Shown piece by piece: positions 563 to 22,196 of a DNA stretch of 22,196 nt (positions within the stretch are counted from its first letter, which is position 1; every line of letters begins with the position of its first letter). The notes below the pieces were generated by a model. The model saw only the letters and a list, made by a program, of their open reading frames with translations. It made no database searches and was not told the origin of the DNA. The position numbers were made by a program, and so were the translations under genes. Source of the stretch: a virus; IMG/VR virus record IMGVR_UViG_3300026549_000035, positions 160,918 to 183,113 of that record, one strand, 5' to 3'.

Positions 563-1597
563 TTATTTATTTTCATTTTTTCTTGCTTTTGCGCAATCAG
601 AACAATAAATTTCGTTTGATCGTTCTATTTCAAAAGGCTCTCCGCAATTTTCGCACCAGTTTACATTAAAGGATACACAATCAACACAATAATATTTCTT
701 TTCTCCAGTTTTTGTTTTTACAAGAAAAACATCATCTTCGGTAAAACTTCTTCCGCATTTAGAGCATTTATAAGGACCTGTTGAATAAACTGGGTATTTA
801 TCATAATCATAAAGATAATCATCTTCATCAGGAGATCCCCAACCCCAATATTTAGACATTCTTGACCAATAGTGTTCATAAGAAGAAGGAATGTATTTAA
901 AAGAAGGAGATGTATTAATATCATCAATCATTTTTTTAACTTTATTAATTGTTGTATATAAAGCGTTTGTATATAAAGTTTCTATTTTTTGATGTTCATT
1001 AAAATATCCTACTGATAAATTAACTCCTGCAATTTTCCATTGAGGGCAAATATAACTAATATCAGAGAAAGAACCCCATTCAGTTAAAAATCCATACCCT
1101 TCGACAAAGTTTTGAAAATCTTCATTATCACATTCATAAAAAACACAATCAGATAAACCTTGTCGGTCTAATTCTACTATATATTTTATTTCAAAGGGGG
1201 CAGAAGGAATTGATTTTATTAATGCTCTTGCTCCTAATCCGCCCATTTCTTCATCTGTGGTAAAACAAATATGCGGACGATATCCACTTTGAATTATTTT
1301 CATAATAGCAAATACACCCGCCCTATCATCAGCTCCTAATCCTTGAGGAGACCATAATACACATTGTTTTTGATCATAAAAAATTTGTTGAGGAAAATGT
1401 GTAAACACAGTATCCATATGAGCAACAAGCATAATAGGAGCAGTTCCTTCACAAAGTAAATAATCTTTAGTTGAAATAATTTTATCTTGAGAATAATGTT
1501 TTTTTAAATAATTCTTTAAAGATTTTTGTAAAGAATTTTGCTTCATTTGTGCAATAGCAGTAAAAAGTTGATAATCAGCATTATTCATTTCGATCAT
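563..1597 (-). CDS. M42/M28-like zinc aminopeptidase-family protein with a C-terminal double zinc-ribbon tail
   Basis: 344-aa ORF ending in TAA. Motifs HMDTV, GADDRAGV and TDEEMGGLGA resemble the metal-binding motifs of M42/M20 peptidases. The C-terminus carries CSKCG, CVDC, CENCG and CSDC. The class I promoter lies immediately upstream. Confidence 0.6.
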   Translation of the reverse strand: MIEMNNADYQLFTAIAQMKQNSLQKSLKNYLKKHYSQDKIISTKDYLLCEGTAPIMLVAHMDTVFTHFPQQIFYDQKQCVLWSPQGLGADDRAGVFAIMKIIQSGYRPHICFTTDEEMGGLGARALIKSIPSAPFEIKYIVELDRQGLSDCVFYECDNEDFQNFVEGYGFLTEWGSFSDISYICPQWKIAGVNLSVGYFNEHQKIETLYTNALYTTINKVKKMIDDINTSPSFKYIPSSYEHYWSRMSKYWGWGSPDEDDYLYDYDKYPVYSTGPYKCSKCGRSFTEDDVFLVKTKTGEKKYYCVDCVSFNVNWCENCGEPFEIERSNEIYCSDCAKARKNENK

Positions 1598-3168: not shown

Positions 3169-4866
3169 TTATGAAAAATCATCTAAGTTTATTGTTCTAA
3201 GTGTTTTTTGAAAATTCTGGATAAATGATTCTTTAATTTTAAGAGGTTTGAAATCCTTAATTCGATGGAAAGGAACGATATATTCACTACACCACCAACT
3301 ATAATACGTATCGTGATAATAAGAAAGAATTTCATCTACACCCTTTTTAAAAACCTTAGAAGCACAGTTTTCACAAATTGTCTTAACAACAGGATTATCT
3401 GCTTCATTTTTTATGATTGGAGTTTGAGTAGAAATAACTTCGCCTTCATCATTCTTCTTATAAAGAGTTTCTCCAATAACAAATTTTATCGCTTCGACAT
3501 CACCCTCATCATCGCAATGGTTTAAGTCAATAATCCTACCACAGATATCACATTCGGGTAAATTTTCATAACAATATGAACAATATTCTCTATTATTAAA
3601 TATTACAAGTTCATTACTATTTGCGATAACGTCACTACAACTACAGCAAACATGATGCTCTACGCAATTAAAGCAAGCTAAATCTGAAGACTCCTCAAAA
3701 TCTTCTTCACCACCGCATATAACGCATTCGCTTACTCCAGAATAATCAAAAATAACATCTTCATCACAATTTTCAACGAGAATTGCTGAATATCTATTTC
3801 CACTATAAAAATCATTATACATAGCAGGACCGCAAGACATATTGATATTTAAATAAGAATTTACAGTTTCATCTTCAATGGTTTCTCCAACTCTCCATCT
3901 AGAAATTTTAGAAGAAAATTTTGTTTGATCAGTAGTAAATAACTCTGCGAGCCATTTTAAAGCTAAATCTTCGAGTTCAGAATTCCAGTAGGGGTATCCC
4001 TTGATACCAAAAACTCCATAATCATTTACAATCATGAACTCTCGCCACTTTTTAGAATTCCATCTTTCCCTAGGATGCTCAGGATCAACATAAAATTCCA
4101 TATGATTAGAATTTGATTCAAGATAAGCAACTATAACATAAGGAGAATTCATCATTTCAACTACTCCTCTACGATACTCGCCATCTATCCAATGCATACA
4201 TGAGTGCCAGTCATTTTCATTCCAACTTGCGGTCATATAATCAAGAGGGTGAATACTTAAACATAAATTTGCAGATAAAAAAGACTCGTTCATAATTTGA
4301 GATTGTTTAATACGAAAATCTTCAAACTGCTGTTCCAGACCTGCCGCTCTAGCAAGACGACCCATAGCTTTCATAATTTTACAGCCATGAACAAGCTTAA
4401 ATACTTTATTATCAGGCAGATTTAATGCTAAAGTTTCTCCCTGATATCTATTGGAAATTAATGGATCAATATCAAACATATAAAATCTTAACTCTGATTC
4501 AATAGAAGTCCATTCCCAACTATATTCTGAGGAGCTAGGCTGCCACTTAGCATAAATATCATTATTTTTTGCAAGCATATCAAGAATTCTCTCTCTTAAA
4601 TAGAGAATGGGGCTATAAGAAATGAATTTTTTCATTTTCTCATGGAGCTCTTCTTCGCTTACCTTAATTTCTACCTTCTTTTTAAGGATAAGTTGATTAC
4701 CGAAAACTTTAGACATTTTTAAAGCTTTAGCTTTTTCCCAATAAGTTAAAAAGGAATCACAACTTACGAAATCTTCATGCACAAAATCTCCTAAATCATC
4801 AGTGCCGTATTTACGAACGGCATTAATTAATGATTTTTCTTCGCTACTAAGTTGCTCAATAAACAT
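3169..4866 (-). CDS. large ORFan with an HPLDY...SC motif domain and a C-terminal multi-CxxC zinc-ribbon region
   Basis: 565 aa ending in TAA, with an AAGGAG SD upstream of ATG 4866. The tail has CVICGG, CFNC, CCSC, CSYC, CDICG and CENC. It is a paralog of the partial gene at 1..546. Confidence 0.7.
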   Translation of the reverse strand: MFIEQLSSEEKSLINAVRKYGTDDLGDFVHEDFVSCDSFLTYWEKAKALKMSKVFGNQLILKKKVEIKVSEEELHEKMKKFISYSPILYLRERILDMLAKNNDIYAKWQPSSSEYSWEWTSIESELRFYMFDIDPLISNRYQGETLALNLPDNKVFKLVHGCKIMKAMGRLARAAGLEQQFEDFRIKQSQIMNESFLSANLCLSIHPLDYMTASWNENDWHSCMHWIDGEYRRGVVEMMNSPYVIVAYLESNSNHMEFYVDPEHPRERWNSKKWREFMIVNDYGVFGIKGYPYWNSELEDLALKWLAELFTTDQTKFSSKISRWRVGETIEDETVNSYLNINMSCGPAMYNDFYSGNRYSAILVENCDEDVIFDYSGVSECVICGGEEDFEESSDLACFNCVEHHVCCSCSDVIANSNELVIFNNREYCSYCYENLPECDICGRIIDLNHCDDEGDVEAIKFVIGETLYKKNDEGEVISTQTPIIKNEADNPVVKTICENCASKVFKKGVDEILSYYHDTYYSWWCSEYIVPFHRIKDFKPLKIKESFIQNFQKTLRTINLDDFS

Positions 4867-4901
4867 ATAGTAATCTTTCTCCTTTTTTATTTTCTATATA
4901 T

Positions 4902-4930
4902 ATTATATAATATTTTTTTATAAAAATCAA
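4902..4930 (-). promoter_or_regulatory. Class I promoter, copy 3
   Basis: Minus strand reads TTGATT (4930..4925), a 17-nt spacer, then TATAAT (4907..4902). The box sequence is conserved. Confidence 0.7.
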
Positions 4931-4962
4931 TTAAGCCTCTTAGAAGCTATAAAATAAAACTT

Positions 4963-5505
4963 TTAGTTAATCATGAATAAGTATAAAAACATTTGACAAC
5001 GACCAGAAGTTTTATTGTTAAATACTATATCTGTCGCTTGTTCTTCTGTTATCCACATAGGGTATATATCTTCATCTTTAGTTGTATTTTTATTAGTTAT
5101 CTCACCTGCAGCAGTGCAAACGACTGTTGCAACAGCTTCATTAGACATTCCCGCAGACTGATAAGCAGGAGGTAAAATATCTAAAATATCTTGTATTTCT
5201 AATCCTGTCTCTTCAAACAGTTCTCTTTTTGCAGTAGTTATAATATCTTCGTTATGTTCACGTAATCCCGCAGGAAAAGCGTAAATATAATCATTAACAG
5301 GAACTCGCCACTCTTTAATAACAAGAACTTTCTTAAAATCAGGAGATAAGGCAATAATGTCTACAGCATCAGCTCCTACCTTATTTATATCTTTAAGTTT
5401 TTGACGAGAAGCTACTTCATAATTACGTCCACTTTCTAATTTAAAATTATAAAAATGTAAAAATTTTCCATCATAAACAGGAACAATTTCTTTTATTTTA
5501 TCCAT
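4963..5505 (-). CDS. Nudix hydrolase (ADP-ribose/NDP-sugar pyrophosphatase-like)
   Basis: The Nudix box GLREHNEDIITTAKRELFEETGL matches Gx5Ex7REUxEExGU. The ORF is 180 aa ending in TAA, with an AAGAGGT SD 8 nt before ATG 5505. Confidence 0.8.
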   Translation of the reverse strand: MDKIKEIVPVYDGKFLHFYNFKLESGRNYEVASRQKLKDINKVGADAVDIIALSPDFKKVLVIKEWRVPVNDYIYAFPAGLREHNEDIITTAKRELFEETGLEIQDILDILPPAYQSAGMSNEAVATVVCTAAGEITNKNTTKDEDIYPMWITEEQATDIVFNNKTSGRCQMFLYLFMIN

Positions 5506-5537
5506 TCTTTTTTACCTCTTTATCATTTTCTATATAT

Positions 5538-5566
5538 ATTATATCATAATTTTTTATAAAAATAAA
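5538..5566 (-). promoter_or_regulatory. Class I promoter variant, copy 4: TTTATT-17-TGATATAAT with an extended -10
   Basis: It shares the ttttctatatatattatatcataattttttataaaaat box. The -35 is degenerate but a TGn extended -10 is present. Confidence 0.5.
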
Positions 5567-5596
5567 AGGGAGAACTTTTTGTTCTCCCTTTTTATA
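5562..5596. terminator. Bidirectional rho-independent terminator
   Basis: AAAAGGGAGAAC, loop TTTTT, GTTCTCCCTTTTT. It lies directly downstream of the stop of 5611..6879. Confidence 0.8.
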
Positions 5597-5610
5597 TATT
5601 TATTAAAAAT

Positions 5611-6879
5611 TTAAGTAGTTACGGGGGTATCGGAAATCTTGTCGGTATTTAAATTTTTCCCAAAAAGTGGGGTCGCTGTCGTAGAATTCATCATTAAAAG
5701 AAAAGGGAGCATATCATTTGCCTTATCTCCCTTTTGGCTCAAAAGGAAATACATCATCATAGGATTAGAAGCAAAGTTATTATTGCCTCCCATAGAATTA
5801 AACAAAAGCAGAGTCATTGGATCAAAATCCTTATTATCATCTGCCAGCATCAAGAAAGGCAACATATTGCCGAAAGGATTATCAGGGTCAGCGGTCAAAC
5901 TACTAAAATCGACCAAGGCGCAAACCTTAGTGAAGAAGTTAAAACCAAAAGGACTCTTAACAGGCAGAATATCTACAACAGTAGAGTTTGCATAATTCAA
6001 AACAGAAATAGTTCCGTTAGAATTAATAGAACGGACAAAAACAGGCTGATTACCATGGATAAGAATATCACCAATAGCAATAGCATTTAATGCTACTGGC
6101 ATCTTATAAATGAGTTTAGAAATATCGAAGTTGATAATATCAACATTAAAAACTTCACCAGTCTTAGAGTTATATGATACCCAGCCATTAGCGTTAGTAG
6201 CAACTGCGATACCATAAGGACTCATACGGAACTGCTTATCAGAAACAGGACCAAAATCGAATTTAATCAAATCGTTAGTATTCATATCATCTTTCTCCTT
6301 ATCATTATTAGTTTTAGTTATATATCCATCAGTATCTAATTGATTAAGAATGTTGTTATACAATGTAGTAGTATTAGAATTATACCATTCTTGGATATAA
6401 TTATTTATTGAATTATCTATTGAAGTTGTTGCATAATTGCTTGAAGAAATAGGAGCGGTTCGATAAGTTATTGTGTCTTTAGCTGAATCTAAATTGCTAA
6501 TAAAATATCCACCTTGACTTACTTCAACTGTATTTGTTTCAAGATCAAAAGGAAGATAATCTTTCCAATAATTTATTAAAAAAGCTGCTAAAGAATTACT
6601 AGATGTTATACCGCATTTCCTTGAACAAGTATAAGAATATAAAGTTTCTCCAAGTGCTTTTTTCCAAGTATCATATTCTTTTATTTGAAGTTTTTCTAGA
6701 TTGTATTCCGGAAAAGAGTGGATAACAACAAAATTAGCTGATTCAGAAACTTTTAATTTTCTCCATTCTCCATAGCCAATGCGCGTATATCCTAAAGTTT
6801 CAGTAGCTTCTTGAAAATCTTTTAAAAGTTGTTTTGAACTAACAAGAATGGCTTCTTTATCTCTTTTTATAATTGCCAC
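5611..6879 (-). CDS. hypothetical protein, 422 aa, possibly structural
   Basis: Long ORF ending in TAA. It contains the internal repeat MLPFLMLADD / MLPFLLMMNS. No domain recognised. Confidence 0.65.
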   Translation of the reverse strand: MAIIKRDKEAILVSSKQLLKDFQEATETLGYTRIGYGEWRKLKVSESANFVVIHSFPEYNLEKLQIKEYDTWKKALGETLYSYTCSRKCGITSSNSLAAFLINYWKDYLPFDLETNTVEVSQGGYFISNLDSAKDTITYRTAPISSSNYATTSIDNSINNYIQEWYNSNTTTLYNNILNQLDTDGYITKTNNDKEKDDMNTNDLIKFDFGPVSDKQFRMSPYGIAVATNANGWVSYNSKTGEVFNVDIINFDISKLIYKMPVALNAIAIGDILIHGNQPVFVRSINSNGTISVLNYANSTVVDILPVKSPFGFNFFTKVCALVDFSSLTADPDNPFGNMLPFLMLADDNKDFDPMTLLLFNSMGGNNNFASNPMMMYFLLSQKGDKANDMLPFLLMMNSTTATPLFGKNLNTDKISDTPVTT

Positions 6880-6924
6880 TTATTTTCTCCTTTCTTTATT
6901 TTCTATATATATTATATCATAATT

Positions 6925-6962
6925 TTTTATAAAAATAAAGGAGAGAATTTTAAACTCTCCTT
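6925..6962 (-). terminator. Rho-independent terminator for 6961..7695
   Basis: GGAGAG, loop AATTTTAAA, CTCTCC. A T-rich tail follows on the minus strand. Confidence 0.6.
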
Positions 6963-7695
6963 ATTTCTTCTCTAAACAGCGCGTTAAAATAGTTTGTTTA
7001 ATACCTTTATATGTTTTATGATCTTTTACAGTTCCAGAAATGTGATGTTCAGTTCCTTCTTCCCAACTTTTTGCCGCAGTAGTCCAAACATAACAATTTC
7101 CATCATAATCTCTCATAATATGCATAGTATTGGGACCAAAATATCCATCAAGAGAAATAGCACTTTCTATCGTAAGAATAAGATCTAATCTATCTCCAAT
7201 CTTACCCTGATATTCACTGATATCAGGTTCATAGATTAATGATTCGACCGCCGCAAGAACAGAATCTTCATTTTTAAGAGTTCCATCTTCATTACCAACT
7301 AAGTTCCAAGGTAATCTAACTGGTTCTACATCTTCTGGAAGATCGTCGGGAATTACATCAGTAGAAATAAAATACCAACCCCACATTCGAGTATATCTGG
7401 CTTTAGATTCTTTAAAATATTCTTTATCTTCATAGGTGTTACCTTTGAAGATGGTGATGAATCCTTCATCACCGAAGCCCAAAACTTCCCTTTGCTGTTT
7501 AAGACGGATTATTTTATCCTCGGTCTCAATCTTTTCACCGGGATACATCTTTAAATATTCTTTTTCAGTATAAAAACGAACTTGTTTTAAAGTGCCACTT
7601 TTAGTGCGCACTTGAACATATTGTCTTCCGTTCTTAATATAAGGTTCTCCTACTTGTTCTAAATTTTGATATGATTTTGCTACCACAAATGGCAC
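6961..7695 (-). CDS. hypothetical protein, 244 aa
   Basis: ORF ending in TAA, tightly linked to 7711..8274 with a 15-nt gap. No domain recognised. Confidence 0.6.
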   Translation of the reverse strand: MPFVVAKSYQNLEQVGEPYIKNGRQYVQVRTKSGTLKQVRFYTEKEYLKMYPGEKIETEDKIIRLKQQREVLGFGDEGFITIFKGNTYEDKEYFKESKARYTRMWGWYFISTDVIPDDLPEDVEPVRLPWNLVGNEDGTLKNEDSVLAAVESLIYEPDISEYQGKIGDRLDLILTIESAISLDGYFGPNTMHIMRDYDGNCYVWTTAAKSWEEGTEHHISGTVKDHKTYKGIKQTILTRCLEKK

Positions 7696-7710
7696 TCCTT
7701 TCTTTATTGT

Positions 7711-8274
7711 TTAAAAAACTTTCCAAATATCAATGCAGTTTACATTCATTACTTCAATAGCTGCTTGATGATTTTCAGGCGATGTGCCAGCGCAAAGATT
7801 ATCATACACGATGATACGAGTATTAGGGCAAGCCGCACGCAAAATTAGCGCATTAGAAATGACGCAAATATCGGTACAAAGACCTACTATAATAATCTTA
7901 TTTACTTCGTCCCTTTTAACACTCTCAATTAAATATTTTGCAAGGTCAAAGCTACCAAAGGTTTTTTTAGTCCACCAAATTACTACGGTTCCTTGTCGCA
8001 ATTTTTCTACAAGAGCTCTTTCTATAGAACTCTCAATTTCAAAACCTTCTGTAGCAGGAACGCAATGAATAGGAATATTCTTTCCTTCGATACTTTTATG
8101 ATAATCCTCTTCAAAGTGTTGATCTTGAGTAGCAAAAATATAGTCACCTTCAAAGTTTTTAATATATTCACATACCAAAGGAACTATCGCTTCTGCTTCT
8201 GGCGAACCCAAAACGCCATCAATAAAATCATTTTGCATATCTACAACTACTAACGCTGTTTTATTTTTTTCCAT
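7711..8274 (-). CDS. nicotinamidase/pyrazinamidase (PncA-like), isochorismatase-family cysteine hydrolase
   Basis: ALVVVDMQNDF (the DxQxDF motif), IPIHCV (the PncA WPxHCV-like metal site), the catalytic-Cys context IIIVGLCTDICV, and a conserved K (KKTFGSFD). The ORF ends in TAA. Confidence 0.7.
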   Translation of the reverse strand: MEKNKTALVVVDMQNDFIDGVLGSPEAEAIVPLVCEYIKNFEGDYIFATQDQHFEEDYHKSIEGKNIPIHCVPATEGFEIESSIERALVEKLRQGTVVIWWTKKTFGSFDLAKYLIESVKRDEVNKIIIVGLCTDICVISNALILRAACPNTRIIVYDNLCAGTSPENHQAAIEVMNVNCIDIWKVF

Positions 8275-8302: not shown

Positions 8303-8587
8303 TTAATTAATTACTTTTTTTTCAGAAAAAATAAGTCCAGATGGAAAAAACAAATCACTTAATTCATTTATAGTTAAATTTGAAATAGTATCTTTCCAAC
8401 AGTCACCATAAAAGCTTTTTAAAGTAGTCCATTCGCAATCATTTGTTTCTTCTTTAATGACGAGGATATCCATATTTGCAGACAAAACATCAAGTTCTAT
8501 TAAATAGGAAATAAGTGCTTTTATATCTGAAGCTACAAGGAGATCGCTCATATCTCCATCTTCATGATTAATACAATATACTTTCAT
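8303..8587 (-). CDS. hypothetical protein, 94 aa
   Basis: ORF ending in TAA, first gene after class I promoter copy 5. Confidence 0.55.
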   Translation of the reverse strand: MKVYCINHEDGDMSDLLVASDIKALISYLIELDVLSANMDILVIKEETNDCEWTTLKSFYGDCWKDTISNLTINELSDLFFPSGLIFSEKKVIN

Positions 8588-8622
8588 TCTTTAAAAACCT
8601 CTTTTTATTTTTTTCTATATAT

Positions 8623-8651
8623 ATTATAATATATATTTTTATAAAAATCAA
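8623..8651 (-). promoter_or_regulatory. Class I promoter, copy 5
   Basis: Minus strand reads TTGATT (8651..8646), a 17-nt spacer, then TATAAT (8628..8623). Confidence 0.7.
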
Positions 8652-8741: not shown

Positions 8742-9338
8742 ATGAGTGTATTAGCTGGAATTATGATAGGAATTGGCTGTATGTTGTATTTATAGATTGG
8801 CGGAATCCCAGGAGCTTGTTTATTTTCAGTTGGATTAATGTCAGTTTGTTTATTCAATATGAAATTATTTACGGGTCAGGCGGGAAAACTTGCAACATTA
8901 GAAATAAAACCCTTAAGCCTTTTAAAAATTTGGATTGGAAATTTTATAGGAATTTTTCTTGTTGCGCTAGTAGCCTTGGTGCATCCAAATTATGAAACTA
9001 TGGCGGAAGCCGCAAGAAATATAATGGCTTCTCGAGAAGCTGCAGGCTTTTTTTATTCTTTCGTATTAGGAATCCCTTGCGGTTTATTAATGTATTGTGC
9101 AGTCACCGCAAGAGGTCCGATGCGATTATTTTATATTATGATTTGCGTAGCAGCTTTTATTTTAGGCGGATTTTACCATTGTATTGCTGATTTATTTTAT
9201 ACTTGGTTAGGTGCTGGAAATATGCAATAGTTATGTAATGTTTTATTCGTAACTCTTGGAAATCTTGTAGGATGCAATCTTATCCCTTTAATAAAAATTA
9301 TTCCAAATAAAATTAAGAGGCTCAAAAAGAAAAAATGA
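8742..9338 (+). CDS. FNT-family-like membrane channel homolog, about 198 codons, with two in-frame TAG codons at 8793..8795 and 9228..9230
   Basis: ATG 8742 sits 7 nt after a perfect AAGGAGGTG SD. The frame is open to TGA 9336..9338 except for the two TAG codons. FNT-like segments lie on both sides of each TAG: FSVGLMSVCLFNMKLFTG (compare FocA FSLGLILCVVCGADLFTS), CVAAFILGGFYHCIADLF (compare GFEHSIANMF), and after the second TAG NVLFVTLGNLVGC (compare the FocA C-terminal VTLGNIIGG). Confidence 0.6.
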
Positions 9339-13567: not shown

Positions 13568-13747
13568 ATGCCAATTAACAAAATAATTTATTCAAAAAGA
13601 GTAATGGAGTCTTTAGTTGCTATGGGTAATATACCTCTTAAATCTATGCCTAATCCTTATAAGCCAGAGTTTTAGTGTTGGATTTTTGAAGTTAATGAAA
13701 AATTTTAGAAAGATATAGATAAAATATTAGGTGATAAATATGGTTGA
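13568..13747 (+). CDS. small protein. ATG 13568 sits after a TAAGGAGG SD, 35 codons run to TAG 13673..13675, the frame continues through a second TAG at 13706..13708 to TGA 13745..13747, and it overlaps the next start.
   Basis: MPINKIIYSKRVMESLVAMGNIPLKSMPNPYKPEF then TAG, CWIFEVNEKF then TAG, KDIDKILGDKYG then stop. The read-through text is protein-like and ends in an ATGnnTGA-style overlap with the downstream gene. Confidence 0.4.
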
Positions 13748-14111
13748 GCGCACTTTTATATTTTATCCTGATTGGCTTAATTTTATTGAACGTATTAGTA
13801 ATGAAAAAGATAAATTAGATTTATATGATATTATTGCTTCTTATGGGTGTCATGGAGAATATTCAAATAAAAATCCTATGATGACTGCTGTTTTTGAATC
13901 TTTAATTAAACCTAAAATAGATATTGCGCAAGGTCGTTATGAAGAAAAAATTACTATGGGAAAGAATTATGGACGTAAAAAAATAGTAGATGATAATATG
14001 GTCAAGTAGTTGGCGCAAGAAGGCATGCGCGCAAAAGATATTGCTGAGAAATTAAACGTGTCGGTTGATACGGTTTATCATAGTGATGGATGGAAAAATA
14101 GAAATTTGTAA
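13740..14111 (+). CDS. two-domain DNA-binding protein. An 89-aa N-terminal domain ends at an in-frame TAG (14007..14009) and is followed by a 33-codon sigma70-region-4-like HTH. It is possibly an ArpU/RinA-like regulator or an initiator-like protein.
   Basis: ATG 13740 sits after a TAGGTGAT SD. The frame after the TAG is contiguous and reads LAQEGMRAKDIAEKLNVSVDTVYHSDGWKNRNL, a classic HTH. The internal ATG 14025 is only 1 nt after its AAGAAGG and cannot initiate well. Confidence 0.5.
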
Positions 14112-16166: not shown

Positions 16167-16195
16167 ATTATATCAAAAATTTTTATAAAAATCAA
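16167..16195 (-). promoter_or_regulatory. Class I promoter, copy 7
   Basis: Minus strand reads TTGATT (16195..16190), a 17-nt spacer, then TATAAT (16172..16167). Confidence 0.7.
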
Positions 16196-16199
16196 ATTT

Positions 16200-16705
16200 A
16201 GGCTCGTAAAGCCACGAAAATTTTTCTGTGGAAAGAAATTCATGAGAACTTCCTTTTGGATAGCTGGGCTGATAAAAATCAGCCTTTGTAAATACGCCAT
16301 AGCAAAGATGAGAACTATGCGTTTTTCCCCGAACGGACATCCGAACGGGAATGGACAGGAACGAAAGAGCTGCGGAAAATTTTTGGTTTTTTTTAATATT
16401 ATACCAAAAAATTTTTTGAAAGTCAAACAAGTAATTATAAAAACAAACACCGAGCGGGGCCGGCAAGTAACTTTCAAATGAGATAAAAGCCATATGGGGC
16501 AAACACCGAACGGGGGCCCGCCCGGGGGGGCAGAGTGGTAAAAAAAAATTTCCCATTTCGGGAAAATGAGATGCCATATGGGGGGCCGCACTTGCCCTCG
16601 AAAAATTTGCATATGGGGTTAGGTGCGGGAATTCGGGCGACGTCTATTGTCGTCGGCCCGATGATTTTATCGCTTTAAGCCACTAAAGTGCCCGGGCGCA
16701 AACCC
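16200..16705. other. GC-rich non-coding island with reiterated CACCGAACGGGG and CATATGGGG motifs and several hairpins. The overlapping track ORFs here are judged spurious.
   Basis: caccgagcgggg at 16448, caccgaacgggg at 16504, ccccgaacgg and ccgaacggg near 16326..16347. catatgggg appears three times near 16491, 16575 and 16610. A bulged hairpin GGGCGACG...CGTCGGCCC is also present. Confidence 0.6.
16538..16568 (-). terminator. Rho-independent terminator for the minus-strand class II unit arrays
   Basis: Minus strand reads ATTTTCCCGAAATGGGAAAT followed by TTTTTTTTT. Confidence 0.7.
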
Positions 16706-16707
16706 TA

Positions 16708-16926
16708 TTAATTAATAGGGGGCGCAATTTTAGTAATCATATTTTCATAAAGGCATATTAATCCTTGATCGAAATGAACCCAAGGAATCATGTCACCCTC
16801 ACGATTCAAGATATACCAACCGACAGTCTTTTTCTTCTCTCTCCAATCCCAAAATTCACACCAGTAGTGAGAGACAAAGCGAGGCCTAATTTTCGTATTC
16901 CACCAAAATCTGAAGTTTGTAAACAT
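16708..16926 (-). CDS. hypothetical Trp-rich small protein, 72 aa
   Basis: It has its own class II promoter. The stop TAA is embedded in the hairpin CCCTATTAATTAATAGGG. Confidence 0.5.
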   Translation of the reverse strand: MFTNFRFWWNTKIRPRFVSHYWCEFWDWREKKKTVGWYILNREGDMIPWVHFDQGLICLYENMITKIAPPIN

Positions 16927-16956
16927 CTTTATTATCTCCTTTTCTTTGATGTATTT

Positions 16957-16985
16957 ATTATAGCGTGAATAAATTAAAATGTCAA
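16957..16985 (-). promoter_or_regulatory. Class II promoter: TTGACA-17-TATAAT, no operator
   Basis: Minus strand reads TTGACA TTTTAATTTATTCACGC TATAAT, then the conserved leader AAATACATCAAAGAAAAGGAG. Confidence 0.7.
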
Positions 16986-16991
16986 GAGTTT

Positions 16992-17174
16992 TTAAAAATC
17001 TTCTTTTCTTTTTATGATTCGTTTATTATTTTTTGAATCAATAATAATAACATACTTATCACCTACACGAGCACGCCAATGGTGAGAAAAGAAGTAGTCT
17101 GCAATAGTTTCCTTGTTATTATCACAGACAGACCAAGTATGATCTGAAAATAAAAGAATTACTTTATCAATCAT
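16992..17174 (-). CDS. hypothetical small protein, 60 aa; weakly similar to the 16708..16926 product (SHHW / SHYW motif)
   Basis: Own class II promoter and operator. Ends in TAA. Confidence 0.45.
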   Translation of the reverse strand: MIDKVILLFSDHTWSVCDNNKETIADYFFSHHWRARVGDKYVIIIDSKNNKRIIKRKEDF

Positions 17175-17203
17175 TTTTATCTCTCCCTTTTTTTGATATA
17201 TTT

Positions 17204-17252
17204 ATTATAACATACTATAACTTAATTGTCAATAATTATTACAATTTTGTAA
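17204..17252 (-). promoter_or_regulatory. Class II promoter (TTGACA-17-TATAAT) with the upstream operator TTACAA-TT-TTGTAA (17239..17252)
   Basis: tgtcaa at 17227..17232, attata at 17204..17209 and ttacaattttgtaa at 17239..17252 on the plus strand. Confidence 0.7.
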
Positions 17253-17265
17253 CCAGCCCGGGTGC

Positions 17266-17292
17266 AGTTCTCTCACCAGTGGAGAGAGAACA
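17266..17292 (-). other. Stop-overlapping hairpin GTTCTCTC...GAGAGAAC at the end of 17273..17560
   Basis: gttctctcaccagtggagagagaac. Confidence 0.5.
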
Positions 17293-17560
17293 CATAGCTT
17301 ACCTTATGATTAAATTTAACTTGATATCCTAATGTTTCGTAATAATTACGAATAATAGTATTTCTTTCATCTGTGTCCAAATCATAAAAACGGTTTCTAT
17401 CTTGAAATCTTAGAAGGATACAAGTTTCGCCCCTACTTGCGGCTGTTTCTATTAACTTATCAAAACGATTAAACTCAGAAAAAAGATAGCTATTAGCAAT
17501 TTCTTTTCTCTTTGTTTGAGCTTCTGTGGCTATCTGTCTTGCTTCTTTTGCACTAATCAT
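17273..17560 (-). CDS. hypothetical protein, 95 aa
   Basis: AAAGGAG SD 9 nt upstream. In an operon 5 nt after 17566..17832. Ends in TGA. Confidence 0.55.
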   Translation of the reverse strand: MISAKEARQIATEAQTKRKEIANSYLFSEFNRFDKLIETAASRGETCILLRFQDRNRFYDLDTDERNTIIRNYYETLGYQVKFNHKVSYVFSLHW

Positions 17561-17565
17561 CTTAT

Positions 17566-17832
17566 TTACTCCTTTTCTAAACAGCGATTAATAAATCGAC
17601 TTATCTTATCTTCTGCAACAGAAACTTCTTTTAAAAGTGAAAATAAGAAATCATTAAAATTATCGTCATAATAAAGAGCGACAAAACTATTGATATCCCC
17701 AGTACCGTGAGTTTCTTCTGCGATAAAATCAGTAATAAGGTCAATCATGCGAGTTACTATCTGAACAGCTTGTAAATTTTTTTCATCAAGATTTAAAGAA
17801 ACCTTTATTACTTTTTCAGAGTCTATTGTCAT
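17566..17832 (-). CDS. hypothetical acidic protein, 88 aa
   Basis: Class II promoter and operator upstream. Ends in TAA. Confidence 0.55.
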   Translation of the reverse strand: MTIDSEKVIKVSLNLDEKNLQAVQIVTRMIDLITDFIAEETHGTGDINSFVALYYDDNFNDFLFSLLKEVSVAEDKISRFINRCLEKE

Positions 17833-17863
17833 TTTTTTTATCTCCTTTTCTTTTGATGTATTT

Positions 17864-17917
17864 ATTATAGCACATCAAGATAAAAAAGTCAATAGTTAAA
17901 ATATTACAATTTTGTAA
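17864..17917 (-). promoter_or_regulatory. Class II promoter (TTGACT-17-TATAAT) with the operator TTACAATTTTGTAA (17904..17917) and the GCCCGGGCG box (17921..17929)
   Basis: agtcaa at 17887..17892 and attata at 17864..17869. The conserved leader is AAATACATCAAAAGAAAAGGAGATAAAAAAAATG. Confidence 0.7.
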
Positions 17918-17942
17918 TCTGCCCGGGCGCAAACCCCTTTGA

Positions 17943-18294
17943 TTAATCATCTTCAAAGGGGCATTCGTCAAACCAAGGACAAGAAGAAGCGCAAGATTCA
18001 GCAGAATCATCACATGGAACATTTAACTTGAAATCATCGGGAAGTGGGAGAGGAGGAAATATTACTTGATCATTTATGATGTGCGCTCCTGACTCAAGAG
18101 CTTCTGCGATGTCAAACCCTTGGAGCCAATCAAGTAAGGCTTCTGCGCAACTTTTTTAAGCAGGTATCCTCATCAACCTTTTGACGGTATTTATCACAAG
18201 CTGTCCAATCGCCTACTTCATAGATAGGACAATCATTACAATAAACTGTTGCTTTGTCAATAAGTTTTTTAAGTTTATTATCATTTACAATCAT
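17943..18294 (-). CDS. Cys-rich protein, about 117 aa, interrupted by a +1 frameshift at an A6 run (minus-strand heptamer A_AAA_AAG, plus-strand T6 at 18152..18157)
   Basis: Frame 0 from ATG 18294 reads MIVNDNKLKKLIDKATVYCNDCPIYEVGDWTACDKYRQKVDEDTCLKK and then stops soon at TGA 18132. The +1 frame is open from just before the A-run to TAA 17945 and reads KSCAEALLDWLQGFDIAEALESGAH...NVPCDDSAESCASSCPWFDECPFEDD. Removing one A joins the two frames. Confidence 0.5.
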
Positions 18295-18332
18295 TTTTAT
18301 AACCTCTCTTCTTAACCTTTTGGAACAAGCTC

Positions 18333-18590
18333 TTAGTAATCAACACTAATGTAACACGCTTCACCACGAGTCATACCATTTTCAAGTAAAACTTCTGCAA
18401 CATAACGCTCAGGTTTATTTAATTCCTCAAAATCTTTTTCATCTTTAGGAATCCAAAAATAAATTGCGCCACTTTGTGGAGGGCAGTATGATTCGTTAAA
18501 TTCTCCTTCTACATCTTCACCATATTTTTTTTGAATAAGGGTAAAAACTTCACTGGAATCATACACTTTATACATTTTGAACTGAAACAT
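18333..18590 (-). CDS. hypothetical protein, 85 aa
   Basis: Class II promoter and operator upstream. Ends in TAA. Confidence 0.55.
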   Translation of the reverse strand: MFQFKMYKVYDSSEVFTLIQKKYGEDVEGEFNESYCPPQSGAIYFWIPKDEKDFEELNKPERYVAEVLLENGMTRGEACYISVDY

Positions 18591-18620
18591 TTTTTTATCT
18601 CCTTTTCTTTTGATGTATTA

Positions 18621-18669
18621 AGTATAACACAGTCAGAAGAAAAAGTCAATAGCTATTACAATTTTGTAA
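18621..18669 (-). promoter_or_regulatory. Class II promoter (TTGACT-17-TATACT) with the operator TTACAATTTTGTAA (18656..18669) and the GCGCCCGGGCGC box (18684..18695)
   Basis: agtcaa at 18644..18649 and agtata at 18621..18626. Confidence 0.65.
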
Positions 18670-18695
18670 CTTTTTTTTTATTGCGCCCGGGCGCT

Positions 18696-18800
18696 CGGAG
18701 GCGTTTACACTCGCTATCCGAGGCACTACTCAGGAACGTGGTAGGAGCACGTCACTCTTTTCATGTCCTACCCTCGAATAGCAACTGTAAACGCCCCCAG
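18696..18800. ncRNA. A ~105-nt GC-rich long imperfect hairpin (about 30 bp paired in three stem segments) inserted between a gene-end hairpin and a promoter box. It is a candidate structured RNA or protein-binding palindrome of unknown class.
   Basis: Outer stem GGCGTTTACA/TGTAAACGCC, middle stem GCTATCCGAGG/CCTCGAATAGC with one wobble pair, inner stem GGTAGGA/TCCTACC. A 17-nt asymmetric loop contains ACGTG. It fails a tRNA cloverleaf test. Confidence 0.35.
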
Positions 18801-18805
18801 GGGGG

Positions 18806-18828
18806 GTTGAGGGGTTAACCCTCAACCT
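18806..18828 (-). other. Perfect 9-bp hairpin GGTTGAGGG-GTTAA-CCCTCAACC overlapping the stop of 18815..19212
   Basis: ggttgaggggttaaccctcaacc. Confidence 0.6.
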
Positions 18829-19212
18829 CAGCAGGAGCTTCATAGACTCCCACAGGAGCGAAGTAGGTTCTGCGCTTTACGCTACCCTTAGACAGCTCAC
18901 CGGCCTGAATAGCCTGACGAAGCAAAGCAGAAACATGCTGATTGCTGTCGCCTTCAACCGCAGGACACTCTTTGAGCAAATCGCTAACGGTGTAACCGTT
19001 CGACCCCTCAACAAAGTGAGTATCGATATACTCTACCAGACGCTCACGAACAACAGCGTTCTCAGTCTGACGAGCGGTAGGTTTACGCTCTATGCCAGAC
19101 TTCTTGTCGAGCTGTTCAACCATCTTCTGGAGCTTCTCAGCTACCTCGGTAGGCAGGTCATAACTCTCCAAACATAAGCAAGAGCCTTACGGTTAGTCAT
19201 CTTATTAGTCAT
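18815..19212 (-). CDS. GC-rich (roughly 50% by eye) putative DNA-binding protein of uncertain fold. The RBS-supported start ATG 19212 is out of frame by 1 nt with the long ORF, so there is a frameshift or indel near 19166..19176.
   Basis: AAAGGA SD 9 nt before ATG 19212, which gives MTNKMTNRKALAYV. The long ORF from TTG 19171 has no SD and reads ESYDLPTEVAEKLQKMVEQLDKK... Inserting one T in the TTT run joins them as ...ALAYVLESYDL.... Codon composition is unlike its neighbours. Confidence 0.5.
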
Positions 19213-19290
19213 AGTATCAATCCTTTCAGCGTTGGTCGCCACCCAAATTTTTATTGTCAAGGGAGGTTTTCCTTCCCTTTGACTGTCTTT

Positions 19291-19345
19291 ATTATATCAC
19301 ATAGAGAGGAAAAAGTCAAGGGGGTTTTCAAATTTTTTTGAAAAT
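19291..19345 (-). promoter_or_regulatory. Class II-type promoter (TTGACT-17-TATAAT) with a different upstream palindrome, TTTTCAAA-N4-TTTGAAAA (19326..19345), and a structured leader
   Basis: agtcaa at 19314..19319 and attata at 19291..19296. The leader hairpin GTCAAAGGGAAGG-AAAA-CCTCCCTTGAC is at 19256..19286. Confidence 0.55.
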
Positions 19346-19533
19346 CTGTTTCGTTACCGTGTATCCACAAAAGAGAGAACCTCGTGGGAGGGACTTTTTA
19401 TCTCTCTCCCCTTGACTGTAATATTATTATAGCAGATTCAATTGGTTTTGTCTATTGGCAAAATGCACAAAGGATTTTCAACATTTTGTTTTATTTTGTG
19501 CATTTTGCCGGGGCACCCGGGCGCTGAGTGCTA

Positions 19534-19866
19534 TTACGAAATAAAGGCAATAGCACGACAGTCAGGCTTCCACTCAAAAAACTTTTCTAAGTGATATTTA
19601 TTATAGAATTTTAAAAATGCTTGTTCATCTTTTGGATTTAAAACATACTTATCTTTATTAAATTCTTTAATATCTTCACCATAGTCAAGGATAGTATACA
19701 CAACCCCAACAAAATGCTCTTCGTCTGCCCAATCATTAAGGCATTTTGCCCATTTGTTTTCCCAGCCTTCACGGTCATTAATATCCTCAATAATATCTTC
19801 AATTGCTTCAAAATCTTCTTTACTAATAATTATGCCGTAACCAATAGCAAAAGAAAAATCTATAGC
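19534..19866 (-). CDS. hypothetical protein, about 110 aa from ATG 19866
   Basis: An AAAGGAG SD lies 9 nt before ATG 19866, and the track start at 19878 abuts the SD. It is in an operon after 19897..20337. The stop is embedded in the hairpin GTGCTATT...AATAGCAC. Confidence 0.5.
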   Translation of the reverse strand, partial: AIDFSFAIGYGIIISKEDFEAIEDIIEDINDREGWENKWAKCLNDWADEEHFVGVVYTILDYGEDIKEFNKDKYVLNPKDEQAFLKFYNKYHLEKFFEWKPDCRAIAFIS

Positions 19867-19896
19867 CATTTTTTTCATCTCCTTTCTTTGTCCCCC

Positions 19897-20337
19897 TCAA
19901 GCCGCAAGAAGCGACTTGAGGGTTTCAATCATTTCATCAGCAGGACAAGCACGACCTGTCCATGCTTCAAGGTGTCGAACTTCATCATCAAACAGAATAT
20001 CCTCGCCAGAATTTACATCATTTTTTGTAAACCAGTAAGGAACAAAACGAATCTCATCAAAACGAACGCTTTTAAGGTGACGATTAAGCCACATTTTTTT
20101 TGCCTTGATTACTGCTTCATCATATTCTGCGGAGCTGTTCTTTGACAAAGCGGTAACAATGCAAATTTCAAAACCGTTGCGCTGAACTCTATTCATCAGC
20201 CGAGCCAGAAGCGAAAGATTTACAAGGGGTTTTGCTTCTGCGTAGGGGGTAGGGTCAGAATTGATTAACTTTTCAAGCCAATCATTAACCCCATAAAGGT
20301 CAGCAATAGTGCCGTCCATGTCAAACCAAATTCTCAT
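19897..20337 (-). CDS. HAD-superfamily 5'(3')-deoxyribonucleotidase (NT5C/YorS-like)
   Basis: The N-terminal HAD motif I WFDMDGTIADL (DxDGT) and the overall 146-aa size and pattern match phage and Bacillus 5'-nucleotidases. Ends in TGA. Confidence 0.6.
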   Translation of the reverse strand: MRIWFDMDGTIADLYGVNDWLEKLINSDPTPYAEAKPLVNLSLLARLMNRVQRNGFEICIVTALSKNSSAEYDEAVIKAKKMWLNRHLKSVRFDEIRFVPYWFTKNDVNSGEDILFDDEVRHLEAWTGRACPADEMIETLKSLLAA

Positions 20338-20360
20338 AGGGTATCAATCCTTTCTCTCTT

Positions 20361-20389
20361 TGATGTATTTATTATATCATACTCTAAAT
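20361..20389 (-). promoter_or_regulatory. Class II promoter (TTGACA-17-TATAAT), no TTACAA operator. The GCGCCCGGGCG box is at 20456..20466.
   Basis: tgtcaa at 20384..20389 and attata at 20361..20366. Conserved leader AAATACATCAAAGAGAGAAAGGA. Confidence 0.65.
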
Positions 20390-20469
20390 AAAATGTCAAT
20401 ACTTTTTCTATTATTATTATAACAAATTTTTTAATATTTTTCAAAGAAGTCTTTTTGCGCCCGGGCGTA

Positions 20470-20504
20470 AATTAAAAAGCGGAATGTAAAGGCATTCCGC
20501 TTTA
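20470..20504 (-). terminator. Rho-independent terminator for 20502..20705; 11-bp perfect stem
   Basis: AAAGCGGAATG, loop TAAAGG, CATTCCGCTTT, with TTTAATTT on the minus strand. Confidence 0.65.
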
Positions 20505-20705
20505 ACAATTATCTGAAAAACAACCCAAATAAGGATCATAGCCTACTTCATAATCACAATCATCTATTTCAGACTCATTGTTATAATAAGCTGCTTCATC
20601 ACATTCTAAGATAGGATTACTCTCAGGGTACATGGAGCAATTACCATACTTATAATAAGGACAAGTACAATCTGCTACAGGACACTCAAAAACTTTTTTA
20701 TTCAT
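20502..20705 (-). CDS. small Cys-rich protein, 67 aa from ATG 20705
   Basis: An AAAGG SD lies 9 nt upstream. The translation MNKKVFECPVADCTCPYYKYGNCSMYPESNPILECDE...CDYEVGYDPYLGCFSDNC has 9 Cys. Ends in TAA. Confidence 0.5.
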   Translation of the reverse strand: MNKKVFECPVADCTCPYYKYGNCSMYPESNPILECDEAAYYNNESEIDDCDYEVGYDPYLGCFSDNC

Positions 20706-20738
20706 TAGTATCAACCTTTCTTCTTTTATTGTGATTAT

Positions 20739-20803
20739 AGTATAGCATGAAAAAATTATTTTGTCAAGGATTTTTTGGTTACAATCTTGTAATCTGCCCG
20801 GGG
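20739..20803 (-). promoter_or_regulatory. Class II promoter (TTGACA-17-TATACT) with the operator TTACAA-TC-TTGTAA (20779..20792) and the GCCCGGGG box
   Basis: tgtcaa at 20762..20767 and ttacaatcttgtaa at 20779..20792. Confidence 0.65.
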
Positions 20804-20807
20804 CGAA

Positions 20808-20834
20808 GCCAGACCTCCCCCATTAAAAGGGGAG
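20808..20834 (-). other. Perfect 9-bp hairpin GACCTCCCC-ATTAAAA-GGGGAGGTC overlapping the stop of the HD gene
   Basis: gacctcccccattaaaaggggaggtc. Confidence 0.6.
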
Positions 20835-21433
20835 GTCGCTGTCGTCAAGGATAAAATCCTCGGGGTGAGCGTCAATCTCATACTCTGCGGTAAGAGTAGG
20901 AATATCCCAAAATGACCTTGAAGCAATATAATCAGACAAGTGAACAAGGCGGTCAACAGGGGTGAAAGGTCTATCTTCTTTCGGCTCAGTCCATTGACCC
21001 ATGTGTGACTTAATCGCCAGTAAAAGCACTTCGGGAGCTTCTTCATTGAAAAATTCCTGCCATGCTTCTTTAACAGCATTTGAAGCGTGCAAACCGTGTT
21101 GCTTGAAGCAATTTTTATCTTCTTCTAAACCGCCGTATTTATAAGTGTCGTGAAGAATACAAGCGACTTTTGCATAATCTTTGTATTCATCTCTCATATA
21201 CGCATAAGTATTCATGCGTAAAAGTTCTTCACATACCATCACAACGGCTCTTGTATGACGAATTAAACCGCCCTCGCCCTGAGCGAATACAGGGTGATAT
21301 TTACCAGAAGAAGAAGCCCCAGACTTTTTAAACCATTCCCCAACACGAGTGTCAAGAAAAAATCGAGTGAAGTCTTTCAAATCTTCGCTTTGGATAAGCT
21401 GGATTTCACGCTCAAAAAATTTACTTAACTGCA
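20823..21433 (-). CDS. HD-domain metal-dependent phosphohydrolase, about 203 aa from ATG 21433
   Basis: H..H (GKYHP...IRHTRAV), HD (ACILHDTYKYG), H (HGLHASN) and D (LVHLSDY) motifs. An AAAGGA SD is 10 nt before ATG 21433. The track start at 21533 would run through the promoter and operator, so it is rejected. Confidence 0.6.
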
Positions 21434-21459
21434 TTTGTATCAAATCCTTTCTCTCTTTG

Positions 21460-21531
21460 ATTACAATGTAATTATAGCACACTCTGTCGGAAATGTCAAT
21501 AGTTATTACAAAATTGTAACCGCGCCCGGGC
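21460..21531 (-). promoter_or_regulatory. Class II promoter (TTGACA-17-TATAAT) flanked by two operators, TTACAAAATTGTAA (21505..21518, upstream) and TTACAATGTAA (21460..21470, over the -10/+1), plus the CGCGCCCGGGC box
   Basis: tgtcaa at 21493..21498 and attata at 21470..21475. Confidence 0.65.
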
Positions 21532-21546
21532 AAAAAATGGGAAGTT

Positions 21547-22084: not shown

Positions 22085-22182
<98 letters not shown>

Positions 22183-22196
22183 CTCTTTCTCTCACT

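Follow-up and report, generated by a model that had tools for sequence, protein, structure and literature searches.

A nicotinamidase and an ADP-ribose-class Nudix hydrolase as accessory genes of an uncultured phage, with a possible role in NAD+ salvage

In the viral DNA analysed here, a stretch of 22,196 nucleotides (nt) from the IMG/VR record IMGVR_UViG_3300026549_000035 which is called the window at its full length throughout, two genes encode enzymes that would act on the products of nicotinamide adenine dinucleotide (NAD+) cleavage:

4963..5505, minus strand, Nudix hydrolase of the predicted ADP-ribose/ADP-sugar pyrophosphatase class, 180 amino acids (aa), monocistronic (PF00293, E 1.5e-12)
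7711..8274, minus strand, predicted nicotinamidase PncA, 187 aa, isochorismatase-like cysteine hydrolase (PF00857, E 1.2e-23)

NAD+ depletion is a major anti-phage strategy of bacteria, and the cleavage of NAD+ by NADases (TIR, SIR2, SEFIR) or by ADP-ribosyltransferases (ART) releases nicotinamide and ADP-ribose (ADPR). An earlier note on this DNA had joined the two genes, as a pair, with an HD-domain gene and an NT5C-like phosphatase gene in one toolkit directed against NAD+-based and nucleotide-signal defences. The four open reading frames (ORFs) are real, all of them lie on the minus strand and each has a Pfam match (PF00293, PF00857, PF01966 and PF06941).

The 187-aa protein can be assigned with high confidence, from its sequence, as a nicotinamidase. 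Its PF00857 score is 84.5 bits against a cut-off of 27, and its best sequence matches in the PDB are nicotinamidases, those of P. horikoshii (1ilw, E 1.7e-15) and B. subtilis (5zn8), with further matches to the enzymes of M. tuberculosis (3pl1) and S. pneumoniae (3o90). The triad D12/K103/C137 aligns with that of B. subtilis PncA and with D8/K96/C138 of M. tuberculosis PncA, and D51/H53/H59/H70 align with D49/H51/H57/H71 of the latter, which are its catalytic residues and metal ligands respectively. Across 53 phage and bacterial homologues the D, K and C of the triad are conserved in 51–53 and the metal D, H and H ligands in 52. Nicotinamidases differ from the other hydrolases of the isochorismatase fold by the D-x-H...H metal site, and the presence of this site is the reason for the call, which agrees with the earlier note. 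The NCBIfam model NF008623 for E. coli-type PncA gives only 40.7 bits against a cut-off of 174, which is not strong counter-evidence since the model was built on enterobacterial PncA. Chromosomal genes annotated as 'cysteine hydrolase' in Miniphocaeibacter and related bacteria encode proteins with about 50% identity to it.

The assignment of the Nudix protein to the ADP-ribose/ADP-sugar pyrophosphatase (ADPRase) class, also anticipated by the earlier note, is solid as far as sequence and predicted fold can tell. The Nudix box (GX5EX7REUXEEXGU) is intact at G80-L102, reading GLREHNEDIITTAKRELFEETGL, and E86, R94, E95, E98, E99 and E123 are invariant across the family, which is small (37 proteins in a word-indexed search). 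Among its closer members, those on contigs that were inspected have phage-like surroundings; the nearest homologue on a chromosome, at about 40% identity, belongs to a spore-forming Firmicute. NudF and NUDT5 are the best PDB sequence matches. A confident AlphaFold2 model (pLDDT 92.5), computed from 30 sequences of the family, has the two-domain architecture of ADPRases, in which an N-terminal beta domain accompanies the Nudix fold, and its top 50 Foldseek matches in the PDB are all ADPRase-class and full-length, with TM 0.68–0.82 and with the N-terminal beta domain covered; they include Bdellovibrio NudF with ADPR bound, human NUDT5, B. methanolicus ACT and Klebsiella NudF. Assignments as a NudC-type (NADH/NAD-cap) or a MutT-type enzyme were rejected on the basis of the two-domain ADPRase fold, the ADPRase top folds and the lack of an SQPWPFPxS-like motif in the protein.

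The left two-thirds of the window match part of the ENA metagenome contig ERZ27252065 k141_7166 (177,555 bp) identically, and its right third is identical to a 6.4 kb ENA contig from the same sample (k141_718151, 6,447 bp); the chimera suspected from this break was rejected, since relatives are collinear across the whole window, a 191 kb contig among them. By coordinate arithmetic, the two ENA contigs seem to overlap at about 15.7–16.7 kb. The syntenic relatives are IMG/VR contigs of 139–200 kb and the one 191 kb ENA metagenome contig (ERZ28653742 scaffold_128), and synteny was anchored on p244, p422, p565, p135, p208 and a 344-aa M20/M28-like protein. Among deposited and cultured phage genomes no near-identical DNA match to the window was found, and an exact 34-mer from the PncA gene had no occurrence in IMG/VR. 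GC content is about 30% and the minus strand holds nearly all genes, and the nearest cellular homologues of PncA and the Nudix protein are chromosomal genes of Clostridia and Tissierellia. Most likely, the window is the early, host-takeover region of an uncultured phage of about 180–200 kb, from gut or rumen samples, with a low-GC Firmicutes host.

Within this lineage each of the two enzyme genes, where present, occupies one fixed site: PncA lies upstream of p244, and the Nudix gene between p422 and p565. The window has both; L001 has PncA without the Nudix gene, L007/L008 and L009 have the Nudix gene without PncA, and L010, L011 and L013 have neither. PncA and the Nudix gene are thus accessory genes inserted between conserved early genes and, since they vary independently, not an obligate pair. 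In one further syntenic relative, IMGVR_UViG_3300026549_001121 (L012, L024, L060), PncB, PncA and Nudix genes stand on one contig: PncB is the first early gene (PF04095, E 9e-67; PF17767), PncA follows about 5 kb downstream with 50% identity to that of the window, and the Nudix gene, 62% identical to that of the window, is about 20 kb away. Of PncB, NadD and NadE, only PncB is present in L012/L024.

The PncB of that relative was used to scan IMG/VR, which gave 36 PncB-bearing contigs, many of them of 100–330 kb; the counts that follow refer to the fetched loci. A PncA homologue lies 0.5–4.2 kb from PncB in 34 of the 36, NadD and/or NadE are present in 27, often as a NadD-NadE fusion (PF01467 + PF02540), and 11 have a Nudix-domain gene (Nudix-NrtR-NMNAT cluster). 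Conversely, four moderately related phage Nudix loci (L065, L067, L069, L072) adjoin NAD-salvage genes. Bacillus phage G, according to its GenBank annotation, has gp273 (Nudix), gp275 (PncA-like isochorismatase), gp277 (PncB), gp281 (NadD) and gp283 (NadE), and the gut phage Phass-1 has a nicotinamidase, Prs, a phosphoribosyltransferase (PRTase) and an unannotated NadE-like gene. Because its homologues are linked to pncB, nadD and nadE across phage loci, the phage PncA family is placed by sequence association in a recurrent Preiss-Handler module, and the same association supports a probable link of PncA and the Nudix protein with NAD+. The comparison of neighbourhoods proposed in the earlier note thus finds homologues of both inside the NAD+ salvage clusters of many large phages.

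Some other features of these loci may be recorded. A Nudix-NrtR_WHD-cytidylyltransferase fusion occurs in 9 of the PncB loci (L024-L059). DUF5662 (PF18907), an uncharacterised family which travels together with NAD salvage genes, is found in 17 of the 36, usually between PncA and PncB. In Phass-1, the 'hypothetical' protein WIC39685 (OQ749652; L014 11510-12433), which lies downstream of the nicotinamidase, Prs and PRTase genes, shares 40% identity with the NAD synthase (NadE) part of a phage NadD-NadE fusion, so that this phage, which uses genetic code 15, seems from its sequence to carry a near-complete salvage cluster.

Around the two enzyme genes of the window, the early region reads as follows, in the direction of transcription:

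8611..8651, minus strand, class A promoter-like element before the p94-PncA-p244 unit (TTGATT-17-TATAAT, then ATATATAGAAAA)
8303..8587, minus strand, p94, 94 aa, function unassigned, first gene of the PncA unit (no Pfam match)
6961..7695, minus strand, p244, conserved core early protein directly downstream of PncA (PHROG matches of unknown function only)
6940..6960, minus strand, terminator-like hairpin GGAGAGTTTAAAATTCTCTCC with a T-run at the end of the PncA unit (read from the sequence)
6898..6935, minus strand, class A promoter-like element before p422 (exact 38-mer match)
5611..6879, minus strand, p422, early protein between PncA and the Nudix gene (no Pfam or PHROG match)
5564..5592, minus strand, intrinsic-terminator-like hairpin after p422, 12 bp stem
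5525..5562, minus strand, class A promoter-like element before the Nudix gene (exact 38-mer match)
4934..4948, minus strand, terminator-like hairpin after the Nudix gene
4889..4926, minus strand, class A promoter-like element before p565 (38-mer match, 2 mismatches)
3169..4866, minus strand, p565, core early protein with Cys-rich ribbons, synteny anchor (37–46% identity in L001 and L007-L013)

Taken together, the promoter-like motifs and the hairpins with T-runs outline the transcription units p94-PncA-p244, p422 and Nudix and the start of p565. The repeated class A element is TTTTTATAAAAAATTATGATATAATATATATAGAAAAT, the core 18-mer of which, TATAATATATATAGAAAA, occurs in 7 copies against 0.04 expected; before the PncA unit the 18-mer matches at 8611-8628 and the sigma-70-like hexamers lie at 8651-8623. 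The earlier note had placed both enzyme genes behind early promoters of one class, and a class A element does stand directly before the Nudix gene, whereas PncA is the second gene of its three-gene unit, behind p94. Homologues of p94 were found only in L001, which also has PncA. The gene p244 is present in all syntenic relatives at 48–71% identity, whether PncA is there or not, and p422 is kept in most at 41–51%. A second family, class B, consists of a GC-rich hairpin GCGCCCGGGC, the palindrome TTACAAAATTGTAA and the consensus TTGACA-17-TATAAT, and the array of such elements described in the earlier note is real: at least 6 copies lie at 16.9–21.5 kb, those directly upstream of the HD and NT5C-like genes included. 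A generic sigma-70 consensus scan of the window showed no enrichment (51 found, 52.6 expected from shuffles), so that the promoter argument is based on the two repeated motif families, both of which look sigma-70-like in sequence; the labels early and middle are provisional for either class.

The class B array (16926-21533, minus strand) has each of its at least 6 elements before a small gene, every element including a strong ribosome-binding site, its palindrome is perfect and operator-like, and its GC content is 37–40%, compared with 24–35% in the rest of the window. Next to it, at 16192-16700 on the minus strand, about 500 nt with a GC content of about 39% hold no convincing ORF and have no Rfam match; in fact, tRNA and Rfam scans of the window gave no match at all. 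This segment has an extended -10 promoter, TTGACT-17-TGGTATAAT, near 16430-16400, the hairpin GGCTGATTTTTATCAGCC, two copies of CCCCATATGGC and several of CGTTCGG or CGCTCGG, and it could be a small RNA, a regulatory region or an origin. At the right end of the window (22090-22190) about 100 nt are almost pure T, which is also where the 6.4 kb ENA contig ends; this run may be a true homopolymer or a product of the assembly. Further left, a core early gene at 563-1597 (minus strand) encodes the 344-aa M20/M28-peptidase-like protein, with zinc ribbons at its C-terminus. In relatives, a paralogue of the 565-aa Cys-rich protein is encoded about 4 kb further on, and Enterococcus phages of about 134–142 kb have a distant homologue of it (23% identity). 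An AcrIC5 Pfam match on a 114-aa ORF was dismissed as noise (E 0.005, below the cut-off).

A plus-strand gene at 8742-9338, divergent from the PncA unit and assigned to the formate/nitrite transporter (FNT) family (PF01226), contains in-frame TAG codons at 8793 and 9228 and ends in TGA. Channels of this family are unusual in phages. In both L001 and L011 the homologue contains three in-frame TAGs and has TAA as its stop codon, one TAG in a relative aligns with Gln in the window and L001, and the ENA gene call reads through the TAGs to give a 198-aa product. A DUF6291-HTH_7 gene (13731-14111, plus strand; 3380-3760, minus strand, in L001) runs past an in-frame stop codon (14007-14009), the end of a 92-aa ORF, into a conserved HTH_7 segment, LAQEGMRAKDIAEKLNVSVDTVYHSDGWKNRNL, identical in the window and L001, and is a second case in favour of stop-codon recoding on the plus strand. 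PncA and the Nudix gene have no in-frame TAG and both end in TAA. In-frame TAGs at conserved positions in plus-strand genes, one of them aligned with Gln, suggest that some genes of the phage lineage are read with genetic code 15, in which TAG stands for Gln.

The two remaining members of the toolkit postulated earlier lie in the class B array:

20823..21434, minus strand, HD-domain protein, 203 aa, core gene (PF01966, E 6.6e-10)
19897..20337, minus strand, HAD-superfamily phosphatase, weakly NT5C-like, 146 aa, accessory (PF06941, E 1e-5)

The HD gene had been given as 20823..21433, which is out of frame; the gene starting with ATG is 20823-21434. Its HD metal-binding motif is intact (H60, H95-D96, H144 and D168, all invariant), and the best 120 of its 772 homologues have 64–89% identity. 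It is much more conserved than its neighbours and keeps the same position in relatives, and is for these reasons a highly conserved core gene. The HD domain had been recognized correctly, but its fold is closest to the HD domain of YhaM, an exoribonuclease, and not to nucleotide phosphohydrolases; sequence and fold point to a core phosphodiesterase- or nuclease-like protein. The earlier note had considered that its enzymes might prove to be housekeeping ones common to all relatives, and this applies to the HD gene, whereas PncA and the Nudix gene are variable. The NT5C-like protein reaches PF06941 marginally (26.0 bits, cut-off 24.8) and over profile positions 77-147 only. HAD motif I (DxDGT) is present as FDMDGT, PHROG matches are split between unknown, PNK and 5'-3' deoxyribonucleotidase (PHROG 2643, E 4e-9), and there is no PDB sequence match. 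A class B element lies at 20340-20405, upstream of the gene, which is absent from L022, L023 and L011. The protein may be an accessory HAD phosphatase with a function separate from PncA and the Nudix protein, a weak assignment by sequence.

As regards mechanism, we lean slightly towards a reading in which PncA and the Nudix hydrolase push the products of NADases into Preiss-Handler salvage, keep NAD+ available and blunt NAD+-depleting defences. The conversion of nicotinamide into nicotinate is the obligatory entry into the Preiss-Handler route in organisms without Nampt. PncA, a metal-dependent enzyme, would carry out this step with release of NH3, and the Nudix hydrolase would split ADPR into AMP and ribose-5-phosphate. 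Nicotinate would then pass to PncB, ribose-5-phosphate would be converted into phosphoribosyl pyrophosphate, which PncB consumes, and NadD and NadE would complete NAD+ synthesis. The PncB, NadD and NadE steps would be supplied by the host or by phage genes outside the visible 31.6 kb, that is, the window plus a 9.4 kb extension (L016), with the consequence that NAD+ could be kept available during infection and NAD+-depleting defences blunted.

Clusters of this kind have been noted before. Preiss-Handler clusters (pncB-nadD-nadE) together with phage pncA were recognized in gut jumbo phages by sequence analysis (Microbiome 2024, PMC11662467), and the PncA-like gp275 of phage G was noted without a function (PMC12484599). 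The 'different route' proposed in the earlier note is thus different from the demonstrated sets, as explained below, but only partly new, since PncA-PncB-NadD-NadE clusters were already described in jumbo phages (PMC11662467) and in the annotation of phage G. The PncA of such clusters, whose bearers are large phages infecting Firmicutes from gut, rumen or soil as well as other hosts, is homologous to that of the window (30–50% identity) with identical catalytic and metal residues, and the clusters often include an ADPRase-type or NrtR-type Nudix gene. In contrast, the visible 31.6 kb has PncA and the Nudix gene only, non-adjacent and each under a promoter-like element of its own unit. No experimental test of a phage PncA/PncB route was found in the literature searched.

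The demonstrated systems follow other chemistry. NARP1 consists of Adps and Namat and NARP2 of Nampt and Nmnat (bioRxiv 10.1101/2024.02.11.579819), NARP1-AP adds the Macro phosphatase Adpp (bioRxiv 10.64898/2026.01.28.702374), and NARP3 combines a PnuC-like transporter with a NadR-like enzyme (PMC13464706). In agreement with the earlier note, the pair belongs to neither NARP1 nor NARP2, nor to NARP3: in the visible region the Pfam and tblastn searches found none of their domains, Adps, Namat, PnuC and NadR not being themselves tblastn queries, and the Pfam scan of 30 window ORFs gave no Prs-like, PRTase, cytidylyltransferase-like or PnuC domain. Like NARP1, the pair is phage-encoded and accessory and would take ADPR and nicotinamide as inputs; unlike it, it would split ADPR and deamidate nicotinamide, where NARP1 pyrophosphorylates ADPR and ligates nicotinamide directly, and the window has no Prs-like or PRTase gene. 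With NARP2 it shares salvage from nicotinamide, and the Nmnat of KVP40 (NatV/NadM-type) is described as fused to a Nudix-type domain; however, NARP2 proceeds via nicotinamide mononucleotide, which is amidated, and encodes all its steps in the phage, whereas the window has a stand-alone ADPRase-type Nudix protein and a deamidating entry enzyme. NARP3 is likewise a two-gene phage set that restores NAD+, but it does so by importing nicotinamide riboside and converting it into NAD+, and has no component in common with the window. Bacterial PncA and NudF/NUDT5 match in folds and catalytic residues, the difference being that the genes of the window are phage-encoded, variable and placed behind phage-specific repeated promoter-like elements.

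Several points weigh against salvage as the joint function of the two genes. Searches by tblastn with phage PncB, NadD-NadE, Prs and Nampt gave nothing in the window or L016 (31.6 kb, with about 146 kb of genome outside), so that the pathway is incomplete within the visible 31.6 kb. PncA and the Nudix gene have separate promoters, with two unrelated genes between them, and occur independently; they are separately transcribed, as far as the motifs tell, and a joint function, as implied by treating them as a pair, is not required by the data. The splitting of ADPR into AMP and ribose-5-phosphate is also an energetically long way to NAD+ compared with NARP1, and the removal of nicotinamide could relieve the product inhibition of host NADases. 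As for the Nudix protein, its NCBIfam scores are far below the cut-offs (NudE NF008736 39.1/169, YffH/AdpP TIGR00052 24.3/79.55 and NudF NF008003 21.4/248 bits), even though these are its best-ranked families. Many ADPRases conserve, as Dunn et al. are reported to have described in 1999, a proline about 15–16 residues after the Nudix box and before G-x-S-N-E; in the window protein this proline is replaced by Ala118 (QSAGMSNE), although the G-x-S-N-E-type motif downstream and the invariant E123 are kept and the orthologues P0145, P0151 and P0152 have Pro at this position (QSPGM). Because of these scores and this replacement, ADPR is put forward as the probable substrate, and the true one could be another ADP-sugar or a related compound.

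Among the alternatives, the one closest in content is general auxiliary metabolism, in which the turnover and recycling of NAD+ would be raised for NAD+-consuming enzymes of the phage, such as an NAD-dependent ligase or ADP-ribosyltransferases, regardless of host immunity. Its chemistry is identical and only the selective reason differs, so that it is inseparable from counter-defence in this respect; the survey of NAD-jumbo phages sees in these clusters a means of making and using NAD+ independently (PMC11662467), an increase of NAD+ through NARP2-type salvage takes place also where no defence system is present (bioRxiv 10.1101/2024.02.11.579819), and PncA and the Nudix protein derive from ordinary Clostridia-type housekeeping enzymes, all of which fits. 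Nevertheless, patchy presence in close relatives is more typical of arms-race accessory genes, and the window shows no phage enzyme that consumes NAD+, for which reasons we regard this explanation as rather unlikely. The occurrence of PncA and the Nudix gene apart from each other in relatives would also suit independent actions on signals or toxic metabolites, the Nudix hydrolase destroying ADPR-derived immune signals or free ADPR, as its ADPR-binding class of fold would permit, and PncA removing nicotinamide, for instance to de-inhibit a phage ADP-ribosyltransferase or sirtuin. Iyer et al. have indeed predicted that Nudix domains which phages express early act against soluble ADPr derivatives (PMC9503650). 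However, RyDEP, before which no enzyme hydrolysing 2'cADPR or 3'cADPR (forms of cyclic ADP-ribose, cADPR) was known, is a cADPR glycosidase and not a Nudix protein (PMC13232231), the window has no ART or sirtuin gene, and the tight linkage of PncA to pncB in nearly all of the PncB-bearing loci points to salvage, which makes independent action improbable.

A role outside NAD+ metabolism, with the isochorismatase-fold protein acting on another amide or ester and the Nudix protein being a house-cleaning or sugar-nucleotide hydrolase, would be in keeping with scores of both proteins far below the NCBIfam equivalog cut-offs, with the label 'unknown function' of PHROG 19305 and with the description of the best Nudix fold match, 5c7q, as a general NDP-sugar hydrolase. 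We hold it to be very improbable, given that, within the fold, only nicotinamidases combine the metal site with the D/K/C triad and that the PncA homologues are linked to pncB. As to the single toolkit of all four enzymes proposed in the earlier note, it is true that the four would hydrolyse nucleotide-like substrates and that all stand behind repeated promoter-like elements, but the HD gene is a core gene whose conservation is very high and whose nearest fold is that of the YhaM domain, and the NT5C-like gene is a marginal match, lies at a distance of about 12–15 kb, stands behind a promoter of another class and is missing from Nudix-bearing relatives. Moreover, neither was found with NAD clusters in the 98 phage loci screened. 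There is thus no basis for grouping the HD or NT5C-like gene with PncA and the Nudix gene, and the four-gene toolkit is scarcely credible.

Returning to the salvage reading, a more specific form of it can be proposed only tentatively and may well be wrong: a minimal, host-dependent 'feeder', in which the phage would provide PncA and an ADPRase-type Nudix hydrolase and the Prs, PncB, NadD and NadE of the host would rebuild NAD+, the PncA-PncB-NadD-NadE(-Nudix) module then being a fourth class of phage NAD+ counter-defence. None of the three demonstrated phage pathways of NAD+ reconstitution (NARP1, NARP2 and NARP3) passes through the deamidating Preiss-Handler route. Firmicutes rely on PncA and PncB for salvage. 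As the window and its relatives show, PncA and an ADPRase-type Nudix gene are accessory genes which move independently of each other in a single phage lineage, and the pair is a plausible, ordinary and reduced instance of a phage NAD-salvage gene set already noted. Should it indeed counter NADase immunity, it would represent a further, partly host-dependent route, which would matter most in Firmicutes.

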